Assembly (NCBI RefSeq): GCF_964194155.1
Contig: NC_135890.1
Location: forward strand, 107,198,001 to 107,262,000
Source of the DNA: Cetorhinus maximus
Lineage: Eukaryota
Direction: 5' to 3'
DNA: 64,000 nt
Below are positions 4,354 to 55,776 of the stretch, in pieces. The translations under genes were made by a program, and so were the position numbers. Within the stretch, counting starts at the first letter, position 1; each line of letters begins with the position of its first letter. Below the pieces are notes generated by a model, which saw nothing but the letters and a program-made list of their open reading frames with translations, was not told the origin of the DNA and searched no databases.

Positions 4354-4821
4354 TTAACCACCTCGTAGACGTAGCATGAGGAAGATGGTGCTCTCAGGCT
4401 GAATATTGTAGTCGGCGAGTGTCCGACCATCCTCCAGCTGTTTCCCCTCGCACACCAGACGCTGCTGATTGGCTGGGACACCCTCCTGCTGTTGTACCCG
4501 TGCTCTAAAATCCCGAACAGACTCAGAGGGATGAACGTCATATGTAGATGTTTTCCCCTTGTCATTCTTCAGGAATATCTGCATGCACTCCTCGTTCTTG
4601 ACAATCAGCATGACCTCATGACTGGGAGAGACATTGTAGTCAGACAGCCTCCTGCTGTCCTGCAGCTCTTCAGTGTTTCCATTTTGCACCACCAGGCGCT
4701 GTCGGAAATGGGGCACCTTGGTTCTTTCATATATCATCTTCTTCAGAGCTGACACTTGGATGGAATGGTCAATATCAAGTTCAATAACCTCACCGGTCAT
4801 AAACTTCACCCGGAGTCTCAT
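4354..4821 (-). CDS. ISG15: ISG15-like di-ubiquitin protein, type A copy 1 (155 aa, ends LRLRGG-stop)
   Basis: Two tandem UBL domains ([17 protein letters not shown]; [32 protein letters not shown]). Single coding exon with acceptor ttcatttcttaacag 12 nt before the ATG. ISREs upstream. Confidence 0.92.
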
Positions 4822-6393
4822 CTTGTCAAATTTCTGTTAAGAAATGAACAAGATATCAGTGACGGAGATGCTGTGTATTGTGTATCAGTCACATAATACT
4901 ATTTTGAACATGCAGTACATTGTCCAGACAATCATAGAATCTAGGGAACTAATGCATTGTGTAATCTGCACCTACTGTACTCCCAACTCAGTCAAACGCC
5001 TGTCAGTATTTTATTCCCTATCGGTGCAATGCTGCACACAAAGCCATGGACTGCTGCAAATACCGAGCAGCCAGCATCTATTGACAGATTAGAGCCTTTT
5101 GCACTTGATATATGAACTCTGTTTCTCTCTTCACAGATGCTGCTAGGTCTGTTGAGTTTTATCAGCATTTTCTGTTTTAATTCTTATTTTCTTCTGTTTG
5201 TACATTGGATTTCAGCATCGCTGCCAAGGCTAGCGTTTATTCCCCAAAATTAATTGCCCTTGTGAAGGTGGTGGTGAGCTGCCTTCTTAAACCGCTGCAG
5301 TGTGTATGTGGTATAGGTCCCACAAGATGCCTCACTTGCTTAAATACAACTTTGATGTTCAGGGCAGTCACTCTCACTTCTAGAATTTATCTGATCTGTC
5401 ACCTTTGGATCAAGTTGTAACGAGGTGTGGAACTCAGTGGTGGTCCTAGGAGAACCCAAAATGTGATGAGTTAACATTTCAGGTGTGAATCCTTTGTGGG
5501 AATTGGAAGATATAAAAATGATCCCACTCCTCACATGTTTCGCCGGCTCACCCACATTCCCATATCGGCAACATTTCGATGTCATGTCTGTTTTCCAGTT
5601 TGAATGAGGCAGAAACTAAGTTAGAAATATTTGTGCAACTTATATTCTGAATTTATGTTGGAGTATTGAAGCTATCGGGTATCTGCTGCGCACACAGTTG
5701 CAATACTCGGTTTTTGCCACAAGAGTGACCCAAGTAACGTGTAACATGAGCCGTGAATGAACGGGCTTCACTTGTGGGGAGCGCTGAACATTTAAACAGC
5801 CAACAGCAGAGTTCTCTAAACCAGGAACGATGAAACTGTTCTTCGTTGTGCAGAATTCCATCACAGCTTCGTTCGTTTTAGACACTGCACTCATGATGAA
5901 ATTAGATTTGTCAGGCTGCCCAAAACCTACATCTGCCCTGGGAATATAGGAATGATTTATCTCACTCACATCTCTCTGTTTAACTTTGGGTATATTCTCT
6001 TCCACTGTCGCCACATTGAGAGGATATTATTTTATCTTAAATTGACTGAGATTCAATATAACCCATTCGAGCTCCCAACATAAATTCACCCTCAAACGTA
6101 TCTTACTATATTGTTTTAAAAAAGCAATGACCCTTGTAATCTTAGTTAATGAATGTTTAATATATTATTTCGAATATTTGAACACCCCCGGTTAGAATAT
6201 CTGAGAACGGGTGTCACATAAACATTAGATCTGTGTCTCCAACAGGATTGAGTTTTTCAATGACTTTCTTTCCATTCTCACCGGGTTTTAATAATAATAA
6301 TTTATCAGAAATTGCATCTGAGATTCAGAACAAAGCAATTTCCACACCAGAAACAGAATATTGAAATTGCCCCGAAAGGCAGAATGAACTCAC

Positions 6394-6590
6394 AGTCCTT
6401 GCTGGAAGCACAGGTCCAGGAAAGTTCAGCTGCTGAATAATTTCTGATGCACTTTTTCTGCGCAGTTGGTCCTTTCTGTTTCCCTTCGCACCGACTCTCA
6501 GATCTGGACGGAGTATGTGAATCAAGCTCTTTGCTTCTGCTGCTCTGTATCTTGCTCTGTGCGTCTCTCCGTTAAACAACTCTGTCTGCG
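6394..6590 (-). other. Predicted non-coding exon 1 of ISG15-A1
   Basis: Donor ACT|gtgagt at 6394/6393, no ATG in the exon, homologous to exon 1 of the B copies, TATA-like ATAAAA at 6613-6618. The TSS is approximate. Confidence 0.65.
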
Positions 6591-6612
6591 CGCGTCTCCG
6601 GCTCCCTCCTCC

Positions 6613-6843
6613 TTTTATTCTCAGACCCGGTTTCCGAACGTCACAGCCCCGCTGTCCTCTGATTGTCGGAAATCCCCTGTTCTGTTATGAAATAAATGTG
6701 ATCGGAGCTGAAGTTTCGTTTTCCGAAAACATCCTCCCCCCCCCCCCCCCCCCCAGTGTCTGACAAATGATCTCTCAGCCAGCAGCAGAGCATTCTTGCT
6801 GATAACAGGAAATGGCCTCTGATCTGTTTCGTTTTCCATTTCC
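6613..6843 (-). promoter_or_regulatory. ISG15-A1 promoter: TATA-like box, kB site, two ISREs
   Basis: Minus strand: ATAAAA 6613-6618, TGACGT ~6638-6643, GGGGATTTCC 6668-6677, GGAAAACGAAACT 6712-6724, GGAAATGGAAAACGAAACA 6825-6843. Confidence 0.78.
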
Positions 6844-12429: not shown

Positions 12430-12897
12430 TTAACCACCTCGTAGACGGAGCATGAGGAAGATGGTGCTCCCAGGCTGAATATTGTAATCGGCGAGTGTCC
12501 GACCATCCTCCAGCTGTTTCCCCTCGCAAACCAGACGCTGCTGAGTGGCTGGGACACCCTCCTGCCGTTGTACTCGTGCTCTAAAATCCTGAACAGACTC
12601 AGAAGGAAGAACGTCATATGTAGATGTTTTCCCCTTGTCATTCTTCAGGAATATCTGCATCCGCTCCTCGTTCTTGACAATCAGCATGACAGCATCGCTG
12701 GGAGAGACATTGTAGTCACACAGCCTCTTGTTATCCTTCAGCTCCACAGTGCTCCCATTTTGCACCACCAGGCGCTGTTGGAAATAGGGCACATTGGCTT
12801 TTTTGTATATCATCATCTTGAGAGCCGAGATTTGGATGGAAGGGTCAACATCAAGTTCAATATCTTCACCGGTCAAAAACCTCACCTGGAGCCTCAT
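12430..12897 (-). CDS. ISG15: ISG15-like di-ubiquitin protein, type B copy 1 (155 aa, ends LRLRGG-stop)
   Basis: ATG at 12897 (the ORF track starts earlier at a TTG), acceptor ctcttaacag 12 nt upstream, two UBL domains, LRLRGG-TAA. Confidence 0.92.
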
Positions 12898-13968
12898 CTT
12901 GTCCAATTGCTGTTAAGAGATGAACAGGATGTCAGTGATGGGGACACTTTATATCACGAGTCAATTGCTAAGAATGAATGAAAGAATTTAACACGCAAGA
13001 CGCATTGTCCCAGGCATTGGCTGCAAGCGCAGAAGCTGAGGGGTAACTGTTGTGTAAATTTCATCTGCAATAATAGCAACATCTGGCTTCCTACATGATA
13101 CCTGAATCGCCTAGACACCAATCTTCACCAACTCCTCCCTTCCTGCCAGACAAAAAGCACCAGATTCACATATCTGTTCCCCTGATTGCATTTGGCTTTG
13201 TCTTTGCTGCTCTATGCTGACTTGTTAAAATATTCAGAAACCCCCTGGGATCTGCGTACTGAGCTGCAATGCTAGCATCTGTCTGAAGTAGCCCTCAGTG
13301 AGCTGTGTAATGTGGCACAGTCTGTGTTTGGGTTCATGGGGAGATAAGAACATGGGCTTGGAAATTCTGTGGGTTTCTCTTGATCTTGCACCATAGCTTC
13401 AGCAATTCATCAATGGAGTCTAAGAGAATGGTTGTAAATGAAGGAAAATGACTGTAAGTTTCACCTTCAAATTAAAGGAACCATTTGTATAACTCTCTAA
13501 ACCACAAGACAGGGCATCCCCAGTCCAGTAGTGAAAAAAAAGTACCCTATTGTTGAGTAGAATTTTCTCTTTTGATGCAAGTGGTCTATGAATGAAATCT
13601 GTACAGTTATGACAGACCAAGCAGCAGAGAGTTATTCTGTCCAGAAATGCTTCCTCTCAGATTCAGACTTACATAATGCATTGTATTGAAAAACAAAAAC
13701 TACTTTGCTGATATTAGATAATGAATGTTTAATACATTAGTTTAAATTTCCATCTTTATAATAGCAGACAAAGGGGTGGCACATAAACATGTTAAGTTGT
13801 TATCGCCTTGTATTGTCTTCAATAACTCACAGGCTATGCTTTTTAAATTAACCTGACCCAGTTCAGAGAATATTAAGAACTTATTTTAAATGGTGAGTTT
13901 CATTCAAAATGACTTATTTTAAAACCCAGAATTAGAATATTGAAATTTCTAAATAAAAGACAGGATAC

Positions 13969-14170
13969 CTGACAATCTTTGCCGGAAGCACAAGTCCAGG
14001 TGAATCAGAAGAAATTTGAGCTGCAGAATGGGGAGAGATTCACTTCCCTGCACAGTTTGTTTTCTCTGTGTTTCTCCACACCGGCTCTCCAATCTAGTAT
14101 AAGGGAATGAAATTCTGTGTGTTTCTTGCTCCGTCTCTTCTGTGTTTCCCACCGTTAAACAAGTGAGTGA
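13969..14170 (-). other. Predicted non-coding exon 1 of ISG15-B1
   Basis: Donor CAG|gtatcc at 13969/13968. Alignable to A1 exon 1 (ggaagcaca.gtccagg; gttaaacaa; ggctccctcct). The TSS is approximate. Confidence 0.6.
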
Positions 14171-14193
14171 GTGTCTGGCTCCCTCCTCAGTCC

Positions 14194-14395
14194 TTTTATT
14201 ATTATTGCTGGTTTCTGAACGTCACAGCCTTGTTGCCCTCTAATTGGTTTGAACAAACAAGTGAGACCAGAGCTGGTTTCATTTCCCAAAGCCTCCCCTC
14301 AGAGTCTGGGAAATAACCTGACAGGAGCAGCAGGAATGCACCTTGCTACAGGTAACAGGTACTGAATTCCGAGTTATCTCAGTTTCAGATTCCTA
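14194..14395 (-). promoter_or_regulatory. ISG15-B1 promoter: TATA-like box, CCAAT, ISRE/IRF element
   Basis: Minus strand: ATAAAA 14194-14199, CCAAT 14243-14247, GGGAAATGAAACC 14275-14287 (same position as the A1 proximal ISRE), and a degenerate GGAATCTGAAACT near 14380-14393. Confidence 0.7.
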
Positions 14396-25737: not shown

Positions 25738-26205
25738 TTAACCACCTCGTAGTCGTAGCATGAGGAAGATGGTGCTCTCAGACTCAATATTGTAGTCGGC
25801 GAGTGTCAGACCATCCTCCAGCTGTTTCCCCTCGCACACCAGACGCTGCTGATTGGCTGGGACACCCTCCTGCCGTTGTACCCGTGCTCTAAAATCCCGA
25901 ACAGACTCAGAGGGATGAACGTCATATGTAGATGTTTTCCCCTTGTCATTCTTCAGGAATATCTGCATCCGCTCCTCGTTCTTGACAATCAGCATGACCT
26001 CATGACTGGGAGAGACATTGTAGTCAGACAGCCTCCTGCTGTCCTGCAGCTCTTCAGTGTTTCCATTTTGCACCACCAGGCGCTGTCGGAAATGGGACAC
26101 CTTGGTTCTTTCATATATCATCTTCTTGAGAGCTGACACTTGGATGGAATGGTCGATATCAAGTTCAATAACCTCACCGGTCATAAACTTCACCCGGAGC
26201 CTCAT
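25738..26205 (-). CDS. ISG15: ISG15-like di-ubiquitin protein, type A copy 2 (155 aa, ends LRLRGG-stop)
   Basis: Intact ORF with 6 aa differences from A1. The exon starts at 26217 after ttaacag. Confidence 0.92.
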
Positions 26206-27783
26206 CTTGTCAAATTTCTGTTAAGAAATGAACAAGATATCAGTGACGGAGATGCTGTGTATTGTGTATCAGTCACATCATACTATTTTGAACATGCAAT
26301 ACATTGTCCAGACAATCATAGAATCTAGCGAACTAATGCATTGTGTAATCTGCACCTACTGTACTCCCAACTCAGTCAAACCCCTGTCAGTATTTTATTC
26401 TCAATCGGAGCAATGCTGCACACAAAGCCATGGACTGCTGCAAATACCGAGCAGCCAGCATCTATTGACAAATTAGAGCCTTTTGGACTTGAATTATGAA
26501 CTCTGTTTCTCTCTTCACAGATGCTGCTAGGTCTGTTGAGTTTTATCAGCATTTTCTGTTTTAATTCTGATTTTCTTCTGTTTGTACATTGGATTTCAGC
26601 ATCGCTGCCAAGGCTAGCGTTTATTCCCCAAAATTAATTGCCCTTGTGAAGGTGGTGGTGAGCTGCCTTCTTAAACCGCTGCAGTGTGTATGTGGTATAG
26701 GTCCCACAAGATGCCTCACTTGCTTAAATACAACTTTGATGTTCAGGGCAGTCACTCTCACTTCTAGAATTTATCTGATTTGTCACCTTTGGATCAAGTT
26801 TTAACAAGGTGTGGAACTCAGGGGTGGTCCTAGGAGAACCCAAAATGAGATGAGTTAACATTTCAGGTGTAAATCCTTTGTGGGAATTGGAAGATATAAA
26901 AATGATCCCACTCCTCACATATTTCGCCGGCTCACCCACGTTCCCATATCGGCAACATTTCGATGTCATGTCTGTTTTCCATTTTGAATGAGGCAGAAAC
27001 TGAGTTAGAAATATTTGTGCAACTTATATTCTGAATTTATGTTGGAGTAATGAAGCTATCGGGTATCTGCTGCGCACACACTTGCAATACTCGGTTTTTG
27101 CCACAAGAGTGACCCAAGTAACGTGTAACATGAGCCGTGAATGAACGGGCTTCACTTGTGGGGAGCGCTGAACATTTAAACAGCCAACAGCAGAGTTCTC
27201 TAAACCAGGAACGATGAAACTGTTCTTCGTTGTGCAGAATTCCATCACAGCTTCGTTCGTTTTAGACACTGCACTCATGATGAAATTAGATTTGTCAGGC
27301 TGCCCAAAACCTACATCTGCCCTGGGAATACAGGAATGATTTATCTCACTCACATCTCTCTCACTGTTTAACTTTGGTTATATTCTCTTGCACTGTCGCC
27401 ACATTGAGAGGATATTATTTCATCTTAAATTGACTGTGAGATTCAACATAACCCATTCGAGCTCCTAACATAAATTCACCCTCAAACGTATCTTACTATA
27501 TTGTTTTAAAAAAGCAATGACCCTTGTAATCTTAGTTAATGAATGTTTAATGTATTATTTCGAATATTTGAACAGCCCCCGTTAGAATATCTGAGAACGG
27601 GTGTCACATAAACATTAGATCTGTGTCTCCAACAGGATTGAGTTTTTCAATGATTTTCTTTCCATTCTCACCGGGTTTTAGTAATAATAATTTATCAGAA
27701 ATTGCATCTGAGATTCAGAACAAAGCAATTTACACACTAGAAACAGAATATTGAAATTGCCCCGAAAGGTAGAATGAACTCAC

Positions 27784-33664: not shown

Positions 33665-34132
33665 TTAACCACCTCGTAGACGTAGCATGAGGAAGATGGT
33701 GCTCTCAGGCTTAATATTGTAGTCGGCGAGTGTCAGACCATCCTCCAGCTGTTTCCCCTCGTACACCAGACGCTGCTGAGTGGCTGGGACACCCTCCTGC
33801 CGTTGTACCCATGCTCTAAAATCCCGAACAGACTCAGAGGGACGAACATCATATGCAGATGTTTTCCCCTTGTCATTCCTGAGCAAAATCTGCTTCCGTT
33901 CCTCGTTCTTGACAATCAGCATGACAGCATCGCTAGGAGAGACATTGTAGTCACACAGCCTCTTGTTGTCCTTCAGCTCCACAGTGCTCCCATTTTGTAC
34001 CACCAGGCGCTGTTGGAAATAGGGCACATTGGCTTTTTTGTATATCATCATCTTGAGAGCCGAGATTTGGATGGAAGGGTCAACATCAAGTTCAATATCT
34101 TCACCGGTCAAAAACCTCACCTGGAGTCTTAT
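33665..34132 (-). pseudogene. ISG15: ISG15-like type B copy 2 with the start codon mutated ATG>ATA (pseudogene or N-truncated)
   Basis: Plus strand gtcttatcttgtc versus gcctcatcttgtc in B1, giving ATA at 34132-34130. The frame is otherwise open to LRLRGG-TAA. The MQIF motif is altered to KQIL. Confidence 0.75.
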
Positions 34133-35209
34133 CTTGTCAAATTGCTATTAAGAGATGAACAGGATGTCAGTGATGGGGACACTTTATATCACGAGTCAAT
34201 TGCTAAGAATGAATCAGTAAACTTAACACGCAAGTTGCATTGTCCCAGGCACTGGCTGCAAGTGCAGAAGCTGAGGAGTAACTGTTGTCTAAACCTCATT
34301 TGCAATAATAGCATCATCTGGCTTCCTACATGATACCTGAATCGCCTAGACACCAATCTTCACAAACTCCTTCCTTCCAGCCAGACAAAAAGCACCAGAT
34401 TCACATATCTGTTCCCCTGATTGCATTTGGCTTTGTCTTTGCTGCTCTATGCTGACTTGTTAAAATATTCAGAAACCCCCGGGGATCTGCGTACTGAGCT
34501 GCAATGCTAGCATCTGTCTGAAGTAGCCCTCAGTGAGCTGTGTAATGTGGCACAGTCTGAGTTTGGGTTCATGGGGAGATAAGAACATGGGCTTGGAAGT
34601 TCTGTAAGTTTCTCTTAATCTTGCACCATAGCTTCAGCAATTCATCAATGGAGTCTAAGAGAATGGCTGTAAATGAAGGAAAATGGCTGTTTGTTTCAGC
34701 ACCATGTTAGAGGAACCATTTGTATAACTATCTAAACCAGAAGACAGGGCATCCCCAGTCCAGTAGTAAAAAAAAAGTACCCTATTGTTGAGTAGAATTT
34801 TCTCTTTTGATGCCAGTTGTCTATGAATGAAATCTATACAGTTATGACAGACCAAGCAGCAGAGAGTAATTCTGTCCAGAAATGCTTCCTCTCAGATTCA
34901 GACTTACATAATGCATTCTATTGAAAAACAAAAACTACTTTGCTGATATTAGATAATGAATGTTTAACGCATTACTTTAAATTTCCACCTTTAAAATAGC
35001 AGACAAAGGGGTGGCACATAAACATGTTAAGTTGTTATCGCCTTGTATTGTCTTCAATAACTCACAGGCTATGCTTTTTAAATTATCCTGACCCAGTTCA
35101 GAGAATATTAAGAACTTATTTTAAATGGTGAGTTTCACTGAGATTCAAAATGGCTTATTTTAAAACCCAGAATTAGAATATTGAAATTCCTAAATAAAAG
35201 ACAGGATAC

Positions 35210-41339: not shown

Positions 41340-41573
41340 ACCCCCAGGCTAAATGGAGGCCTCTGGAAAGCTGCAGGCCTGATAAAGATTCCTAACTGAA
41401 GAGTGCTGAGCTGAAGGTTTAAAGTACACAGAAAGCTGCTGGAATTCATTCTGAACTGCTACAGATCACACAGGCAAGTTTAAAAAACTTCCTGCAATAA
41501 ATACTTCACAGACCAGATTGACAACACCACTGAGCCCGCCCCCCCCCCGCATGTCACCCAGAAAATTCTGCCC

Positions 41574-42495
41574 AGCAGCACAGCCACATCACTGCAATAC
41601 CACAGTCATATCAGAGCCATATCACAGCAATATCAATGCAATACCACAGCCATATCAGAGCCATATCACAGCAATATCACAGCAATACCACATTCATATC
41701 AGAGCCATATGACAGCAATACCACAGCCATATGACAGCAATACCACAGCCATATGACAGCAATACCACAGTCATATCAGAGCCATATCACAGCCATAGGA
41801 CAGCAATACCACAGACATATCAGAGCCATATCACAGCAACACCACAGCCATATCACAGCAATACCACAGTCATATCAGAGCCATATCACAGCAATACAAC
41901 AGCCATATGACAGCAATACCACAGCCATATGACAGCAATACCAGTGTCATATCAGAGCCATATCACAGCAACACCACAGTCATATCACAGCAATACCACA
42001 GTCATATCAGAACCATATCACAGCAATACCACAGCCATATCACAGCAACACCACAGCCAGATCACAGCAATACCACAGTCATATCAGAGCCATATCACAG
42101 CAATACCACAGCCATATCACAGCAACACCACAGCCAGATCACAGCAATACCACAGCCATATCACGGCAATACTACAGCCATATCACTGCAATACCACAGC
42201 CATATCACTGCAACACCTCAGCCATATCACAGCAACACCACAGCCATATCACAGCAATACCACAGTCATATCAGAGCCATATCACAGCAATACCACAGCC
42301 ATATCACAGCAATGTCTCAACCATATCACAGCAATATCACAACCATATCACAGCAATACCACAGCCATATCACAGCAATACCACAGGCATATCAGAGCCA
42401 TATCACAGCAATAACACAGCCATATCACAGCAATGCCACCGCCATATCACAGCAATACCACGGTCATATCAGAGCCATATCACAGCCATATCACA
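41574..42495 (+). repeat. Minisatellite of ~11-bp units (CACAGCCATAT alternating with CACAGCAATAC)
   Basis: About 0.9 kb of directly visible tandem repeat with 22-bp higher-order periodicity. Confidence 0.95.
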
Positions 42496-43110: not shown

Positions 43111-43635
43111 TTTAGTGCCCACTAATCATCAGCGTCTAACCTCAGAAGTGAGGACCTGCAGGACTGGTGGCATCCCAGACTGACAGAGGAATAGGGCACA
43201 AAATAAAAGAATAAAGGGAAGACAGATGGAAATGTAGATCCAGATATTTCATACTGTGGCTGCTGTTATCTTCTGAAGGTAGGCATGTCATCAACACAGT
43301 GGGAGGGATTCCAAATTTATAGTTAGATTCTTTTCCAACAAATGTCCACTGGGTTTATAGAGGAACTTTACAAATGTGTTTTCTTGGCAGCTTCCCCCAC
43401 AGCATCACACTATCAAATCAGCACAGATCACAAATTTAAGTTGTGGGTAGGAAGGAAGTGACAATTATATTTTCCATGACATTCCTACATTACAACAGTG
43501 ACTGTAGTTAAAAGTACTTCTATGGCTGTAAATGCTGGTGCATTGCCTGTGGTCGTGAAAGGTGCTTTATAAGTACAAGTCTGTTCTTTTAGCTCATGAT
43601 CACTACGGGCGTTTACAGACAGCTGTGGAACTGGA

Positions 43636-43692
43636 GAAATGAAACCGAAACCAAACAGTCAAAACAAGTCGTGTTTCTGAGGAAATCGAAAG
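43636..43692 (+). promoter_or_regulatory. OASL promoter ISREs
   Basis: GAAATGAAACCGAAACC at 43636-43652 and GGAAATCGAAAG at 43681-43692, about 220-270 nt upstream of the ATG. Confidence 0.8.
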
Positions 43693-43907: not shown

Positions 43908-44081
43908 ATGATGGAATTATACAGCACTGATCACAAGAGGTTGGACGATTTCATTAAAACTAACCTGGAGCCGAATGAATTTAATACCAATGTGAGGAAT
44001 GCTGTGCACAGAATCTGTGAATTTTTAAGGAATCGATGTTTTCTCAAACAACCTGAGATCAAAGTAATCAGAGCCGTTAAA
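43908..44081 (+). CDS. OASL: OASL coding exon 1 (of 6; total 1509 nt, 502 aa)
   Basis: MMELYSTDHKRLDDFIKTNLEP..ICEFLRNRCF..VIRAVK matches the OAS N-terminus. Donor AAA|gtaagt, phase 0. Confidence 0.9.
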
Positions 44082-46191: not shown

Positions 46192-46492
46192 GGAGGGTCG
46201 TCAGGCAAAGGAACAGCTTTAAGAAACGGTTCAGATGCGGATCTGGTTGTCTTCCTCAGTTGTTTCCAGAGTTTCCAGGAGCAGAGGAACACCAGGCATG
46301 AAATCCTTGAAGGAATCCAGCAAATGCTGGAAAAGTGTGCTTTGAGTATTGCCTATGAGATCAGTGATATCAGTATCAATTTTATACCGAACAGCAACAG
46401 CCCACCAAAATCGATGAGCTTTTCAATAAAATCAAAGAAGAAAGATTCAGACAGCGTGGATTTTGATATTTTGCCAACATTCGATGCATTAG
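46192..46492 (+). CDS. OASL: OASL exon 2 (nucleotidyltransferase core)
   Basis: GGSSGKGTALRNGSDADLVVFL..VDFDILPTFDAL. Acceptor ctcctcag, donor G|gtaaga, phase 1. Confidence 0.95.
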
Positions 46493-49433: not shown

Positions 49434-49609
49434 AGGGAACAGACAATGCCAATGATGCCCACCTCAAGCTAATCAAGTTAGTAAACGAAAATGGAGCTCT
49501 AGGTGGCGAATTTTCTGCCTGTTTTACTGAGCTTCAGAGAAACTTTGTGAAGCAGTGTAAACCAAAACTTAAAGACTTGATTCGCCTGCTGAAGCATTGG
49601 TACAAGCAG
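49434..49609 (+). CDS. OASL: OASL exon 3
   Basis: GEFSACFTELQRNFVK..KLKDLIRLLKHWYKQ (OAS signature). Acceptor ttcttacag, donor CAG|gtaagt, phase 0. Confidence 0.95.
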
Positions 49610-51668: not shown

Positions 51669-51919
51669 CATGTCAAGCCACGGAAATCCGATCTGAGACC
51701 TGGCGAACGTCTTCCTGCTAAGTATACAGTGGAGCTGCTGGCTATCTATGCCTGGGAGCAAGGCAATGGGCAGGAGAGATTCAGCACAGCTGAAGGGTTC
51801 CGGACAGTCCTTGAACTGATCTGCAGATATCAGGATCTGTGCATCTACTGGACTCAGAACTACAACGTCGAGAATAGAGTCATTGCAGACTTTCTAATAA
51901 AGGAACTCAGTGGCAAGAG
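51669..51919 (+). CDS. OASL: OASL exon 4
   Basis: HVKPRK..LPAKYTVELLAIYAWEQG..AEGFRTVLELI..LCIYWT.NY. Acceptor tgctctag, donor AG|gtaatc, phase 2. Confidence 0.95.
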
Positions 51920-52591: not shown

Positions 52592-53326
52592 AGAAGCCGA
52601 CCACTGCTCACGATTGGGGCCGGACCGTGATTTCATGCTGGTGGGCCAATTAAGGCCCGCCCAGCGTGAAACGCGCACTGCAGCACGGCCTGTATTGGGG
52701 GGGAAGGAGGGCAAGAGTGCAAGTTCGCGCAAGCGCGAGTAGGAAAAGCTCCCTGAGGCACAGAGCTGCCTCAGCGGAATGAAGTTATGAAAATTTAAAA
52801 AGAAAGCATTTTAAGATGTTAAAAAACATGTCCCCTCATGTGACTCTGTCACATCAGTAAGGACATGTTAGAAATTAGTATGAACATTTTTTTAAATGAC
52901 GGATTGAAATCTCATCCCGTCTGTGGATGAGGATTCGCAAAAAATGCAAAGGCCGCTTTGACCGCAAAGGCTGAGCTGAGAGATGGTGATCGTCTTCCTG
53001 CTAAGTACAGAGTGGAGCTGCTGGCTATCTATGCCTGGGGGCAAGGCAATAGGCAGGAGAGAGTCAGCACAGCTGAAGGGCTCCAGACAGTCCTTGAACT
53101 GATCTGCACATATCAACATCTGTGTATCCACTGGACCAAGTAGGTGACGAGCTGAACGCCAACCGTAAGGTTGGACAGGCAGCAAAAAATTTAAATCAAT
53201 TAGGTTGTTAATGGCCTTAATAGGCCTGTTAGTTGTCGGTGGGCGCACTGCCAATTCCTGCGCGTGCCCATCAACCCAAATATCACACGTCATGTACACC
53301 TGCCCAACGAGCGAGGAATCCTGCCC
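52592..53326 (+). mobile_element. Harbinger-related MITE carrying an inserted OAS exon-4 fragment
   Basis: Shares gggccaattaa.gcccgcccag with the Harbinger left end (~36510). Ends aatcctgccc|taa. Inverted homolog of 54252-54914. Confidence 0.78.
52963..53140 (+). pseudogene. Partial diverged copy of OAS/OASL exon 4
   Basis: ELRDGDRLPAKYRVELLAIYAWGQG..TAEGLQTVLELICTYQHLCIHWTK*. It lacks the native acceptor and the 3' part of the exon. Confidence 0.88.
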
Positions 53327-53600: not shown

Positions 53601-53733
53601 GCCAATAATTCTTGACCCAGCTGACCCAACTGGAAATGTGGCTTTGTCTAATGGATGGTATGTCATGGTGGCTGAGGCTAAGAAATGTCTGAGCATGCCA
53701 TGTGCCTCTCAAGTTCCAGAATGGGAATTCCAG
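53601..53733 (+). CDS. OASL: OASL exon 5
   Basis: RPIILDPADPTGNVA..W..EAKKCL..W (OAS signature). Acceptor tttttcag, donor CAG|gtaaaa, phase 0. Confidence 0.95.
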
Positions 53734-54251
53734 GTAAAACAGTTTTAATAAATCATAAAGTTTTGAAACAAAACAGTATAAAATGTAGAAATTTTGTAGA
53801 TTGTGTTGTTCAATCTAGGAGTTCCATCTGTATAGAATACATAGGACCATAGGACTGAGGAGCAGGATTTGAAATTAGCTCTCAGACGCAAAGGATCATG
53901 TTCTCATTGGGGAGAATTTTCGACGAAGTCACCACCTGTCATTTTACGTGTTGGCGAGCGGGGCCTGCCCCCTCACGCTGACCCGAAGATTCAGGCCATT
54001 AATTACCTCAATCCTCCTTTGGAAACTTCATTCTTTAAAGCAAGCTGGAAATGATAGACCAGTTGCCGGGATTTAAAGATATATATAGAGAGTCACATTA
54101 ATCAGAAGCTCCCCAGGTTCAATTCTCAGTCCATACAGAGTTAGAGGATATCAACGAGGTGAAGGTGGGAGTGCTACAATTCACCTCAACACCCCTGTGC
54201 TCAAGCTGCAGAAAGAATCAGCTGGGATTCCCGCTGACCACATATTATATG

Positions 54252-54914
54252 TGGACAGAAATTTTTTCTCGGTTGGTGGGCGCGTGCCTGACCCGCTGAA
54301 GCATGAAATGACACATGAGACCTTTGGCCAAACGTGCCGGGGTCAACGTGCAGTTGCGCAATAGTTCGGCCAACGGGTGTGCACTGGAGCCAAAGTGCGC
54401 CCGCCGGCAATTAAGACCATTAAGTAATTAATTAACGTAAATTTTTCACTGCCTGCCCAACCTAATGGCTGGCGGGCAGGCGAAAAGACCAAGCAGCCTT
54501 TGCATTTTTTTTGGAAACCTTATCCACAGGCGGACGAGTTTTGCAAGAGCAAATAAAAATAAAATAAAATCTTTAATTTTTAATTAACAACATGTCCCTG
54601 CTTATGTGGTAGAATCACATGAGGGGACATGTTTCAGTACATTTTTAATTTTTATAATTATTTTCTTTCATATCTCTTACGGCTGCCTCAGGGATGTTAT
54701 GCAGCATTCACTCCCGCGTATTCGTGAAGTTCACACCCTTCCTGATCACTCTCCTCCCCCCCCTCACACAGGCACCGCTCAGCGTTGCCACTCACATGTC
54801 ACGCTGGGCGGGCCTTCATTGGCCGCCAGCGTGAAATCTCGGTGCAGTGCCGATCGCGAGCGGCTTCCCAACCAGCCCTGCCGAGCCCGCAGGCCAAGGG
54901 CAAAATTCTGCCCC
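54252..54914 (-). mobile_element. Harbinger-related MITE
   Basis: Ends ggacagaaatttt / aaaattctgcccc match the Harbinger right TIR. Possible 3-bp ATG TSD. Confidence 0.78.
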
Positions 54915-55302
54915 ATGTGTGTGGGTATCAGATAAATATAAGATCCAACTGGGTTGGACAGTTGAGTGAAACTCACTGTCTAAGCTCACACAAGAACAAT
55001 GGCCACTTGTGTGAGATACGGAGTGTAGTTATCACATCATAACAATCAATCAGGAGAGAAAGGATGAAAATTAAGGAGATAAAAGCAAAAAACTGCAGAT
55101 ACTGGAAATCCAAAACAAACACAAAAATACCTGGAATAACTCAGCAGGTCTGGCCGCATCTGCGGAGAGGAGCACAGTTAACGTTTCGAGTCCGAAAGAC
55201 CCTTCAACAGAACTAAGTGAAAATTAAGGAGATGTAATTATCAGAGCACTTAGAAACCAGGACACAACTCATTGCTACATTCTTATTTTTTTTTTGTCTT
55301 AG

Positions 55303-55776
55303 CCAATAAAAGAGTTTGAAATCACTGTGTTTACACTGGATGGGAGCTCATTAAGCCTGAATGTCAATATTGACAACAAAATCTCAATGATCAAGAAACA
55401 AATCCAGCAAGAATGGGACATTCCAGTTTACCAGCAACGCCTGAGCTTTAATAAAGCCATTCTGGATGACAACAAATCCTTGTTGCATTCCGGAATATTC
55501 TTTGATGCAAGGCTCCATCTGGTCATCACAACGTCAATGCAGATATTCGTCAGGACTGTAAATGGGCGTGACCTGACACTTGATGTATCCCCAACTGACA
55601 AGGTTTTGAGCCTGAGAAATAAGATTGAATCTCAGGAGCGCCTTTCATCGAGCCAATACTACCTGACCTATGGATCGATACCATTAGAAGACGGCCGCAC
55701 ACTGGAATCCTACGGCATTCAGCAACATTCCACCATCACCATCAACTTGCGTCTCCGTGGAGGCAAGGAGACTTGA
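55303..55776 (+). CDS. OASL: OASL exon 6: two tandem UBL domains ending LRLRGG-KET-stop
   Basis: Acceptor (t)n-gtcttag, in phase with exon 5. PIKEFEITVFTLDG..YQQRL..; MQIFVRT..LEDGRTLESYGIQ..LRLRGGKET. Confidence 0.93.
   Translation, partial: PIKEFEITVFTLDGSSLSLNVNIDNKISMIKKQIQQEWDIPVYQQRLSFNKAILDDNKSLLHSGIFFDARLHLVITTSMQIFVRTVNGRDLTLDVSPTDKVLSLRNKIESQERLSSSQYYLTYGSIPLEDGRTLESYGIQQHSTITINLRLRGGKET

Follow-up and report, generated by a model that had tools for sequence, protein, structure and literature searches.

Probable common origin of the tandem ubiquitin-like exon of OASL and the coding exon of ISG15 at a shark locus

The stretch of DNA analysed here (the window, 64,000 nucleotides) lies at 107.198–107.262 Mb of chromosome C12 in the genome of the shark Cetorhinus maximus, and its closest named proteins come from lamniform sharks. 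It contains four ISG15-type genes on the minus strand, upstream of an OASL gene on the plus strand. Exon 6 of OASL and the coding exon of ISG15 each encode two ubiquitin-like domains (UBL1 and UBL2) and the motif LRLRGG. An earlier note, made from the sequence alone, proposed from their splice geometry that the two exons are related. The two exons probably share a common origin, which is supported by a linkage in common with salmon, the same acceptor offset in a teleost, and domain-matched trees that include OASLs of bony vertebrates. The geometry argument itself has proved weaker than stated, and capture by OAS, rather than fission from it, is somewhat more likely than not. Although unproven, the evolutionary link has more support than the earlier note could give it.

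The OASL gene of the window comprises the following elements:
43634–43692, plus strand: motifs resembling the interferon-stimulated response element (ISRE) upstream of exon 1, by consensus match only
43908–44081, plus strand: coding part of exon 1
46192–46492, plus strand: exon 2, nucleotidyltransferase core with the D-x-D motif and the third Asp present
49434–49609, plus strand: exon 3
51669–51919, plus strand: exon 4
52967–53140, plus strand: degenerate copy of exon 4 within intron 4, containing stops, to which none of the splice joints shown leads
53601–53733, plus strand: exon 5, with a phase-0 donor spliced to exon 6
55303–55776, plus strand: exon 6, four-codon linker, UBL1, UBL2 and LRLRGG-KET-stop
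55303–55314, plus strand: linker P-I-K-E, 12 nucleotides (nt) from the acceptor to ubiquitin position 1
55315–55536, plus strand: UBL1, 74 residues, without the loop insertion of ISG15 and most bony-vertebrate OASLs
55537–55764, plus strand: UBL2, 76 residues, ending in LRLRGG

OASL is an intact six-exon gene whose exons join in frame, with exon 5 ending in phase 0. All five introns are spanned by contigs of sequencing runs that come from related species and, although not recorded as RNA, are guessed to be RNA; the joint between exons 5 and 6 (53733 to 55303, GT..AG) is present in contigs of two of the four putative RNA runs. The identification of 55303–55776 as OASL exon 6, which starts ag/PIKE-FEITV and ends with two UBLs, LRLRGG and KET before the stop, was correct in the earlier note. 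The protein carries OAS nucleotidyltransferase and OAS1_C domains, followed by two Pfam ubiquitin matches in tandem in its C-terminal tail. Its UBLs group with those of vertebrate OASLs in clades supported, by the SH-like approximate likelihood ratio test and ultrafast bootstrap (SH-aLRT/UFBoot), at 91.8/99 for UBL2 (28/28 members) and at 97.1/99 for UBL1 (27/28, with lungfish outside). OASL is a real gene of a known family and a member of the OASa.U class. Shark OASL, with its catalytic Asp residues and ISRE-like motifs, is predicted to be a 2-5A synthetase that is induced by interferon and has intact catalysis; after trimming of KET it could be conjugated, as has been shown for chicken OASL.

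The ISG15-type genes of the window comprise the following elements:
4354–4833, minus strand: ISG15-A1 exon 2, 12 nt of untranslated region (UTR) and the whole 155-residue coding sequence, ATG at 4821
6394–6618, minus strand: ISG15-A1 non-coding exon 1, taken to run from its TATA-like box up to the donor, without ATG; ISRE-like motifs lie upstream
12430–12909, minus strand: ISG15-B1 exon 2, 12 nt of UTR and the coding sequence
13969–14199, minus strand: ISG15-B1 non-coding exon 1, with two in-frame stops
25738–26217, minus strand: ISG15-A2 exon 2
33665–34144, minus strand: ISG15-B2 exon 2, with ATA at the start codon

All four genes encode two UBLs joined by a non-cleavable hinge and ending in LRLRGG, and they have the fish-type plan of two exons, with an intron in the 5′UTR and an ISRE-like promoter. 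The intron joints of ISG15-A1 and ISG15-B1 were each found in three of the four putative RNA runs. With ATA in place of the start codon and three ATGs upstream of it that are out of frame, ISG15-B2 is likely to be a non-functional copy. The splice acceptor is located 12 nt ahead of the first UBL codon in all four copies, as the earlier note had counted, and in 19/19 copies on the chromosome. However, the reading of these 12 nt as four open, phase-0 codons does not stand. In the 16 of the 19 copies for which exon 1 is identified, A-type genes have no ATG between the TATA-like box and the donor (8/8 copies), and B-type genes have one to two in-frame stops (8/8), with ATGs in three copies, all out of frame. 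Therefore, the 12 nt are untranslated and their splice phase is undefined. The four copies in the window are recent tandem duplicates with nucleotide identities of 89–97%, so that they count as one data point and not as independent support.

The 19 ISG15 copies span C12:107.07–107.39 Mb, and 16 of them alternate between A and B types with a repeat unit of about 21 kb; the number 19 is that of the assembly, which may have inflated the array. In 8/8 A-type copies, exon 1 has 75 codons without a stop in the reading frame of the UBL, by chance or because of a non-AUG start. Two copies (L003:4265 and L012:9644, minus strand) run past LRLRGG into an extension of about 39 residues. A degenerate tandem repeat array at 41573–42495 separates the ISG15 promoters from that of OASL, and related sequence is present near 17.3–17.6 kb.

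The acceptor of OASL exon 6 has the same 12-nt offset as that of ISG15, as does the acceptor in a second OAS type with a single UBL. The correspondence of V and G between the two exons holds, as does the explanation of their length difference by a three-residue loop and a two-residue hinge. Exactly 12 nt occurs in 0/5 other ubiquitin-family genes of the shark genome: apparent offsets are 3 and 6 nt in the two polyubiquitin genes, 5 nt in a UBA52-like gene and about 22 nt in a UHRF1-like gene, and the apparent acceptor of a Parkin-like gene is inside the ubiquitin domain, the last three genes having been read from sequence only. An acceptor near position 1 at a multiple of three is also common to polyubiquitin genes. 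A near acceptor is thus a trait of the ubiquitin family; the 12-nt offset is not. By a rough estimate, a chance match among in-frame offsets has a probability of about 1 in 8–10, and geometry alone is weak evidence of common origin.

The offset also occurs outside this shark. In ISG15B of Asian sea bass, 12 nt follow a 115-bp intron, as counted on the printed genomic sequence (PMC9680060, supplement 1). A Heterodontus OAS model (P0122) has taken in a piece of ISG15 in antisense orientation, which shows the same register. The linker spacing W-x-x-x/P-x-x-x of OASL is kept in 116/116 proteins from chimaera to birds; this count, from which 6 of 122 proteins were dropped because they had no UBL or were truncated, is an inference at the protein level by a permissive pattern from a set with no mammalian OASL. 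Exon 6 accordingly combines what exon capture predicts, a homologous exon with the same acceptor position joined in frame, though the approximately unbiased (AU) test of the trees is not significant.

The trees were calculated from 28 OASLs (10 from cartilaginous fish, eight from non-bird bony vertebrates, and 10 from birds, selected from a list in which birds predominated), 11 ISG15s of sharks, ubiquitin, and a NEDD8-like copy, with 72 alignment columns per domain. The search for ISG15 homologues was swamped by polyubiquitin and had 13 shark-type ISG15s among the 120 matches listed. The trees pair OASL with ISG15 domain by domain; the AU test rejects only one of six alternatives. In the best tree, the support is 85.5/98 for the pairing of UBL2 with UBL2, 83.1/49 for that of UBL1 with UBL1, and 96.9/99 for the separation of all four UBL groups from ubiquitin and NEDD8. 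A reduced set, which also held seven unrelated UBLs as controls and the UBLs of three single-UBL OAS proteins, gave 88.5/85 and 91.9/85 for the two pairings; the seven controls fell outside both ISG15–OASL clades and the three added OAS domains grouped with UBL1.

With either of two models, 0/150 star simulations reached the log-likelihood difference (ΔlnL) of 10.24 for UBL2, and with one of the models 0/150 reached that of 3.66 for UBL1. The UBL2 signal is still significant without birds (0/100 simulations). Taken individually, the UBL2 domains of OASL favour ISG15 UBL2 in 26/28 cases and ISG15 UBL1 in 5/28, and the UBL1 domains favour ISG15 UBL1 in 23/28, with scores of at most 0.26 for the seven controls; the strongest individual scores fall in birds. 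Residues that are common to ISG15 and OASL and differ from ubiquitin and NEDD8 include Y15 and I67 of UBL2, and a TEP-type hinge is common to salmon ISG15 and the OASLs of turtle and birds. In a search of the PDB, a shark-ISG15 profile scores 107 bits with the UBLs of chicken OASL and 108 bits with human ISG15. An OASL profile aligns mammalian ISG15 through both domains in one stretch (92–113 bits), and it matches di-ubiquitin twice, with the best stretch at UBL2.

The ISG15 and OAS genes form one cluster. On C12, a PXMP2-family gene at 106.74 Mb is followed by POLE (106.88–106.90 Mb), a P2X2-like gene (106.98–107.02 Mb) and 16 ISG15 copies, beyond which lie eight OAS units with three further ISG15 copies interspersed. 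The identity of the first neighbour as PXMP2 rests on Pfam and on the adjacency of PXMP2 to POLE. The P2X gene was first assumed to be P2RX7, presumably a neighbour of human OASL; that assignment was rejected, because the best match is P2X2. The two clusters of HNF1-family matches that are nearest in kind lie at a distance of 27 Mb in one case and on C9 in the other. In about 80 kb past the last OAS gene, the long open reading frames (ORFs) listed, viewed without a family scan, are repeat-like only and reveal no downstream flanking gene.

In salmon, ISG15.1 is listed directly after PXMP2, and other ISG15 copies are near TPCN1/IQCD/CFAP73 and GATC/SFRS9; no OAS gene is among the listed flanks, and the human order is HES4-ISG15-AGRN (PMC12234341, supplement). 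By position, the shark genes are thus orthologous to teleost ISG15, with which they have the PXMP2-family neighbour in common. The neighbours of the salmon genes are presumably those that surround human OAS1–3 and OASL on 12q24. In the shark, AGRN is on C15, not C12, and none of the scored ISG15 candidates is at the AGRN site. Position gives no sign of orthology to mammalian ISG15, and compared with shark ISG15, human ISG15 scores 96 bits and chicken OASL 95 bits. In five other sharks, the longest contig has the same length for the ISG15 as for the OASL proteins, which suggests that both genes are on the same chromosome. Because of this apparent co-location and the PXMP2 neighbour in common with salmon, the linkage of ISG15 and OAS looks ancestral and the position of mammalian ISG15 derived.

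Several results weigh against a common origin. The trees contain neither FAT10 nor ISG15 of bony vertebrates, and their NEDD8 outgroup resembles a processed pseudogene. The UBL1 signal fails a site-heterogeneous null, under which 19/150 simulations reach 3.66, and with the OASLs of cartilaginous fish alone the UBL2 signal is not significant (10/100 simulations). The AU test (18 taxa per domain, 72 sites) ranks the common origin first, and neither the by-gene tree of independent duplications (p = 0.134) nor a crossed control (p = 0.137) is rejected. The window OASL's own domains yield ΔlnL values of 0.27 and 0.39, and its UBL1 is nearer to ubiquitin (25/74 identities) than to ISG15 (15–20/74). 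The absence of the ISG15 loop from UBL1 of shark OASL requires that this indel was lost or gained twice. One single-UBL OAS scores 4.23 with ISG15 UBL2, yet the tree places the sequence with UBL1, which shows that individual scores of this size can mislead. A single teleost offset, that of sea bass ISG15B, is readable, since the ISG15A stretch is incomplete in the supplement. The 12 nt in that gene contrast with human ISG15, where exon 1 already contains the ATG and position 1 corresponds to residue 3; the offset there is 3 nt, a variation that tells in part against the geometry argument.

The OASL tail of the window has drifted and shows little by itself. Pairwise identity of its domains was tried as a test of origin and set aside as uninformative or contrary: UBL2 has 34/76 identities to ubiquitin and 34/76 to ISG15-A1, in agreement with the earlier count of about 35 and about 34 and its conclusion of about equal similarity.

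The explanation that is somewhat more likely than not is that an OAS gene captured a di-ubiquitin exon from a neighbouring early ISG15 before the split of sharks and bony vertebrates. A polyubiquitin-type gene, with a non-coding exon 1, an intron and one coding exon, would have yielded a two-unit copy, which would have diverged into a proto-ISG15 whose acceptor preceded the ATG by 12 nt. One locus of the present shark genome holds both ISG15 and OAS-UBL genes. If a same-strand ISG15 copy once lay behind an OAS gene, the phase-0 donor of OAS exon 5 could have joined the ISG15-type acceptor, and the former 12-nt UTR would have turned into the four-residue linker; as 12 is divisible by three, the fusion would have preserved the reading frame. 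The fused tail would have retained LRLRGG, and mammalian ISG15 would later have relocated to the HES4–AGRN site with a changed junction. It counts against this course of events that every one of the 19 ISG15 copies lies on the strand opposite to OASL; the present layout is therefore not the pre-fusion one, and an inversion would have been needed to reach it.

The reverse course, in which OAS took a polyubiquitin-derived di-UBL exon first and ISG15 is a later copy that gained a promoter and a non-coding exon, predicts the same trees and linkage and would make the 12 nt a relic of linker codons. It accounts for why these nucleotides are free of stops and fixed in length though untranslated in shark and sea bass, and exon 6 has evidently been shuffled within the OAS array, where one B-type OAS bears an A-type exon 6. 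However, such a fission requires a new interferon-responsive promoter and a first exon that happen to recreate the polyubiquitin layout, as well as an ATG exactly at position 1, which is rarely Met in OASL, and shark ISG15 UBL2 is sister to OASL rather than nested inside it. Fission is unlikely. Capture is preferred over it because ISG15 keeps a polyubiquitin-like plan with Met at position 1 and because invertebrate OAS proteins lack UBLs, according to PMC6307210 and PMC10400998. Independent origins of both tails from polyubiquitin, with their likeness arising by convergence on the conjugation machinery or by later gene conversion and the 12-nt match by chance, are about as unlikely as fission. 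They agree with the AU value of 0.134, with shark OASL domains being no nearer to ISG15 than to ubiquitin, and with the strongest scores falling in birds, which, according to PMC8764230, conjugate OASL and have no ISG15; moreover, the two-exon plan is also that of the polyubiquitin genes, whose offsets are 3 and 6 nt and one of which is on C12. Nevertheless, the signal survives the removal of birds (0/100 simulations) and is domain-matched, and the seven unrelated UBLs stay outside the ISG15–OASL clades. Two more coincidences, one of linkage and one of offset, would be needed; gene conversion may have occurred, but would still imply shared descent of the present sequences.

Polyubiquitin genes, presumably of the UBB/UBC type, resemble shark ISG15 in that an intron closely precedes the ATG and a single exon holds all repeats; they differ in their near-invariant repeats, their cleavable junctions, and their offsets, which are 3 and 6 nt. 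A four-unit polyubiquitin gene at C12:126.027 Mb, 19 Mb from the cluster, is a candidate relative of the source gene. Teleost ISG15 shares with shark ISG15 a non-coding exon 1, the whole coding sequence in exon 2, an ISRE-like promoter, and the LRLRGG end (PMC9680060). By contrast, one to six ISG15 copies are reported in teleosts, and the 19 shark copies adjoin OAS genes.

Chicken OASL (PDB 7SBI) has the same order as shark OASL, an OAS domain, two UBLs, LRLRGG, and a short C-terminal extension, and only di- and poly-ubiquitin-type chains match the shark tail better than 7SBI. An ISG15-like structure and conjugation of chicken OASL have been shown by Shepard et al. (2022, PMC8764230), the consulted portion of which makes no claim of common descent, linkage, or exon structure. 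Unlike birds, the shark has ISG15 next to OASL. According to Chu et al. (2023, PMC10400998), the ancestral architecture is OAS-UBL, which was gained before the ancestor of jawed vertebrates, and shark OASL corresponds to their OASa.U-type protein; in the main text, so far as it was available, the source of the UBLs is not named and ISG15 and synteny are not mentioned. The accessible part of Hu et al. (2018, PMC6307210) states only a “domain fusion of UBL”. In the literature searched, by titles and the starts of abstracts with subscription journals outside its scope, a common origin of ISG15 and OASL is not stated; older papers, subscription papers, or the supplement of Chu et al. may already state part of the link.

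A common origin would name the source of the OASL tail, left open in the consulted parts of the papers on OAS evolution (PMC10400998, PMC6307210), and would trace two interferon pathways, so far studied apart, to a single ancestral locus. It would also explain why birds could lose ISG15 while their OASL is conjugated. Shark and bird OASLs would be predicted to use the enzymes of ISG15 (E1, E2, and USP18) rather than those of ubiquitin, and viral deISGylases would have faced two related targets since early jawed vertebrates. A wider scheme, given somewhat less than an even chance, is that the first jawed vertebrates had one ancestral antiviral locus, PXMP2-POLE-P2RX2-ISG15-OAS. In this scheme, OASL would be an OAS–ISG15 fusion formed by a single splice, the conjugation of bird OASL would be inherited ISGylation rather than convergence, mammalian ISG15 would be a relocated copy whose junction was remodelled, and OAS proteins with a single UBL and a CaaX end would be truncated descendants of that exon and a possible source of prenylated mammalian OAS1.

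The second OAS type, with one UBL, the same four-codon linker, and a CaaX-like end (CILM, CSLM, CCII, or CVCL), is present in sharks, chimaera, coelacanth, and worm lizard. Examples are L022:7993-8247 (C12, about 107.420 Mb) and the protein models P0122, P0124, P0125, P0157, P0191, P0198, P0205, and P0234. The CaaX end parallels that of prenylated human OAS1 p46 (PMC12737575), and among the papers listed in a literature search that included sharks, none contains that word.

In L005–L006, the body of a B-type OAS precedes a di-UBL exon 6 of A type that is 95.5% identical to that of the window, an apparent exon swap within the array. In three OAS copies (L004:9054-9344, L009:7211-7486, and L014:4441-4731), the same deletion has removed the exon-6 acceptor and most of UBL1, and one of them also has LRLRVG. 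A lone OAS1_C match outside the cluster is located at C2:65179423-65179632. The unplaced contigs C1108 and C3654 (L049 and L050) encode a divergent single UBL that ends in GG and a stop and falls outside the ISG15 and OASL groups.
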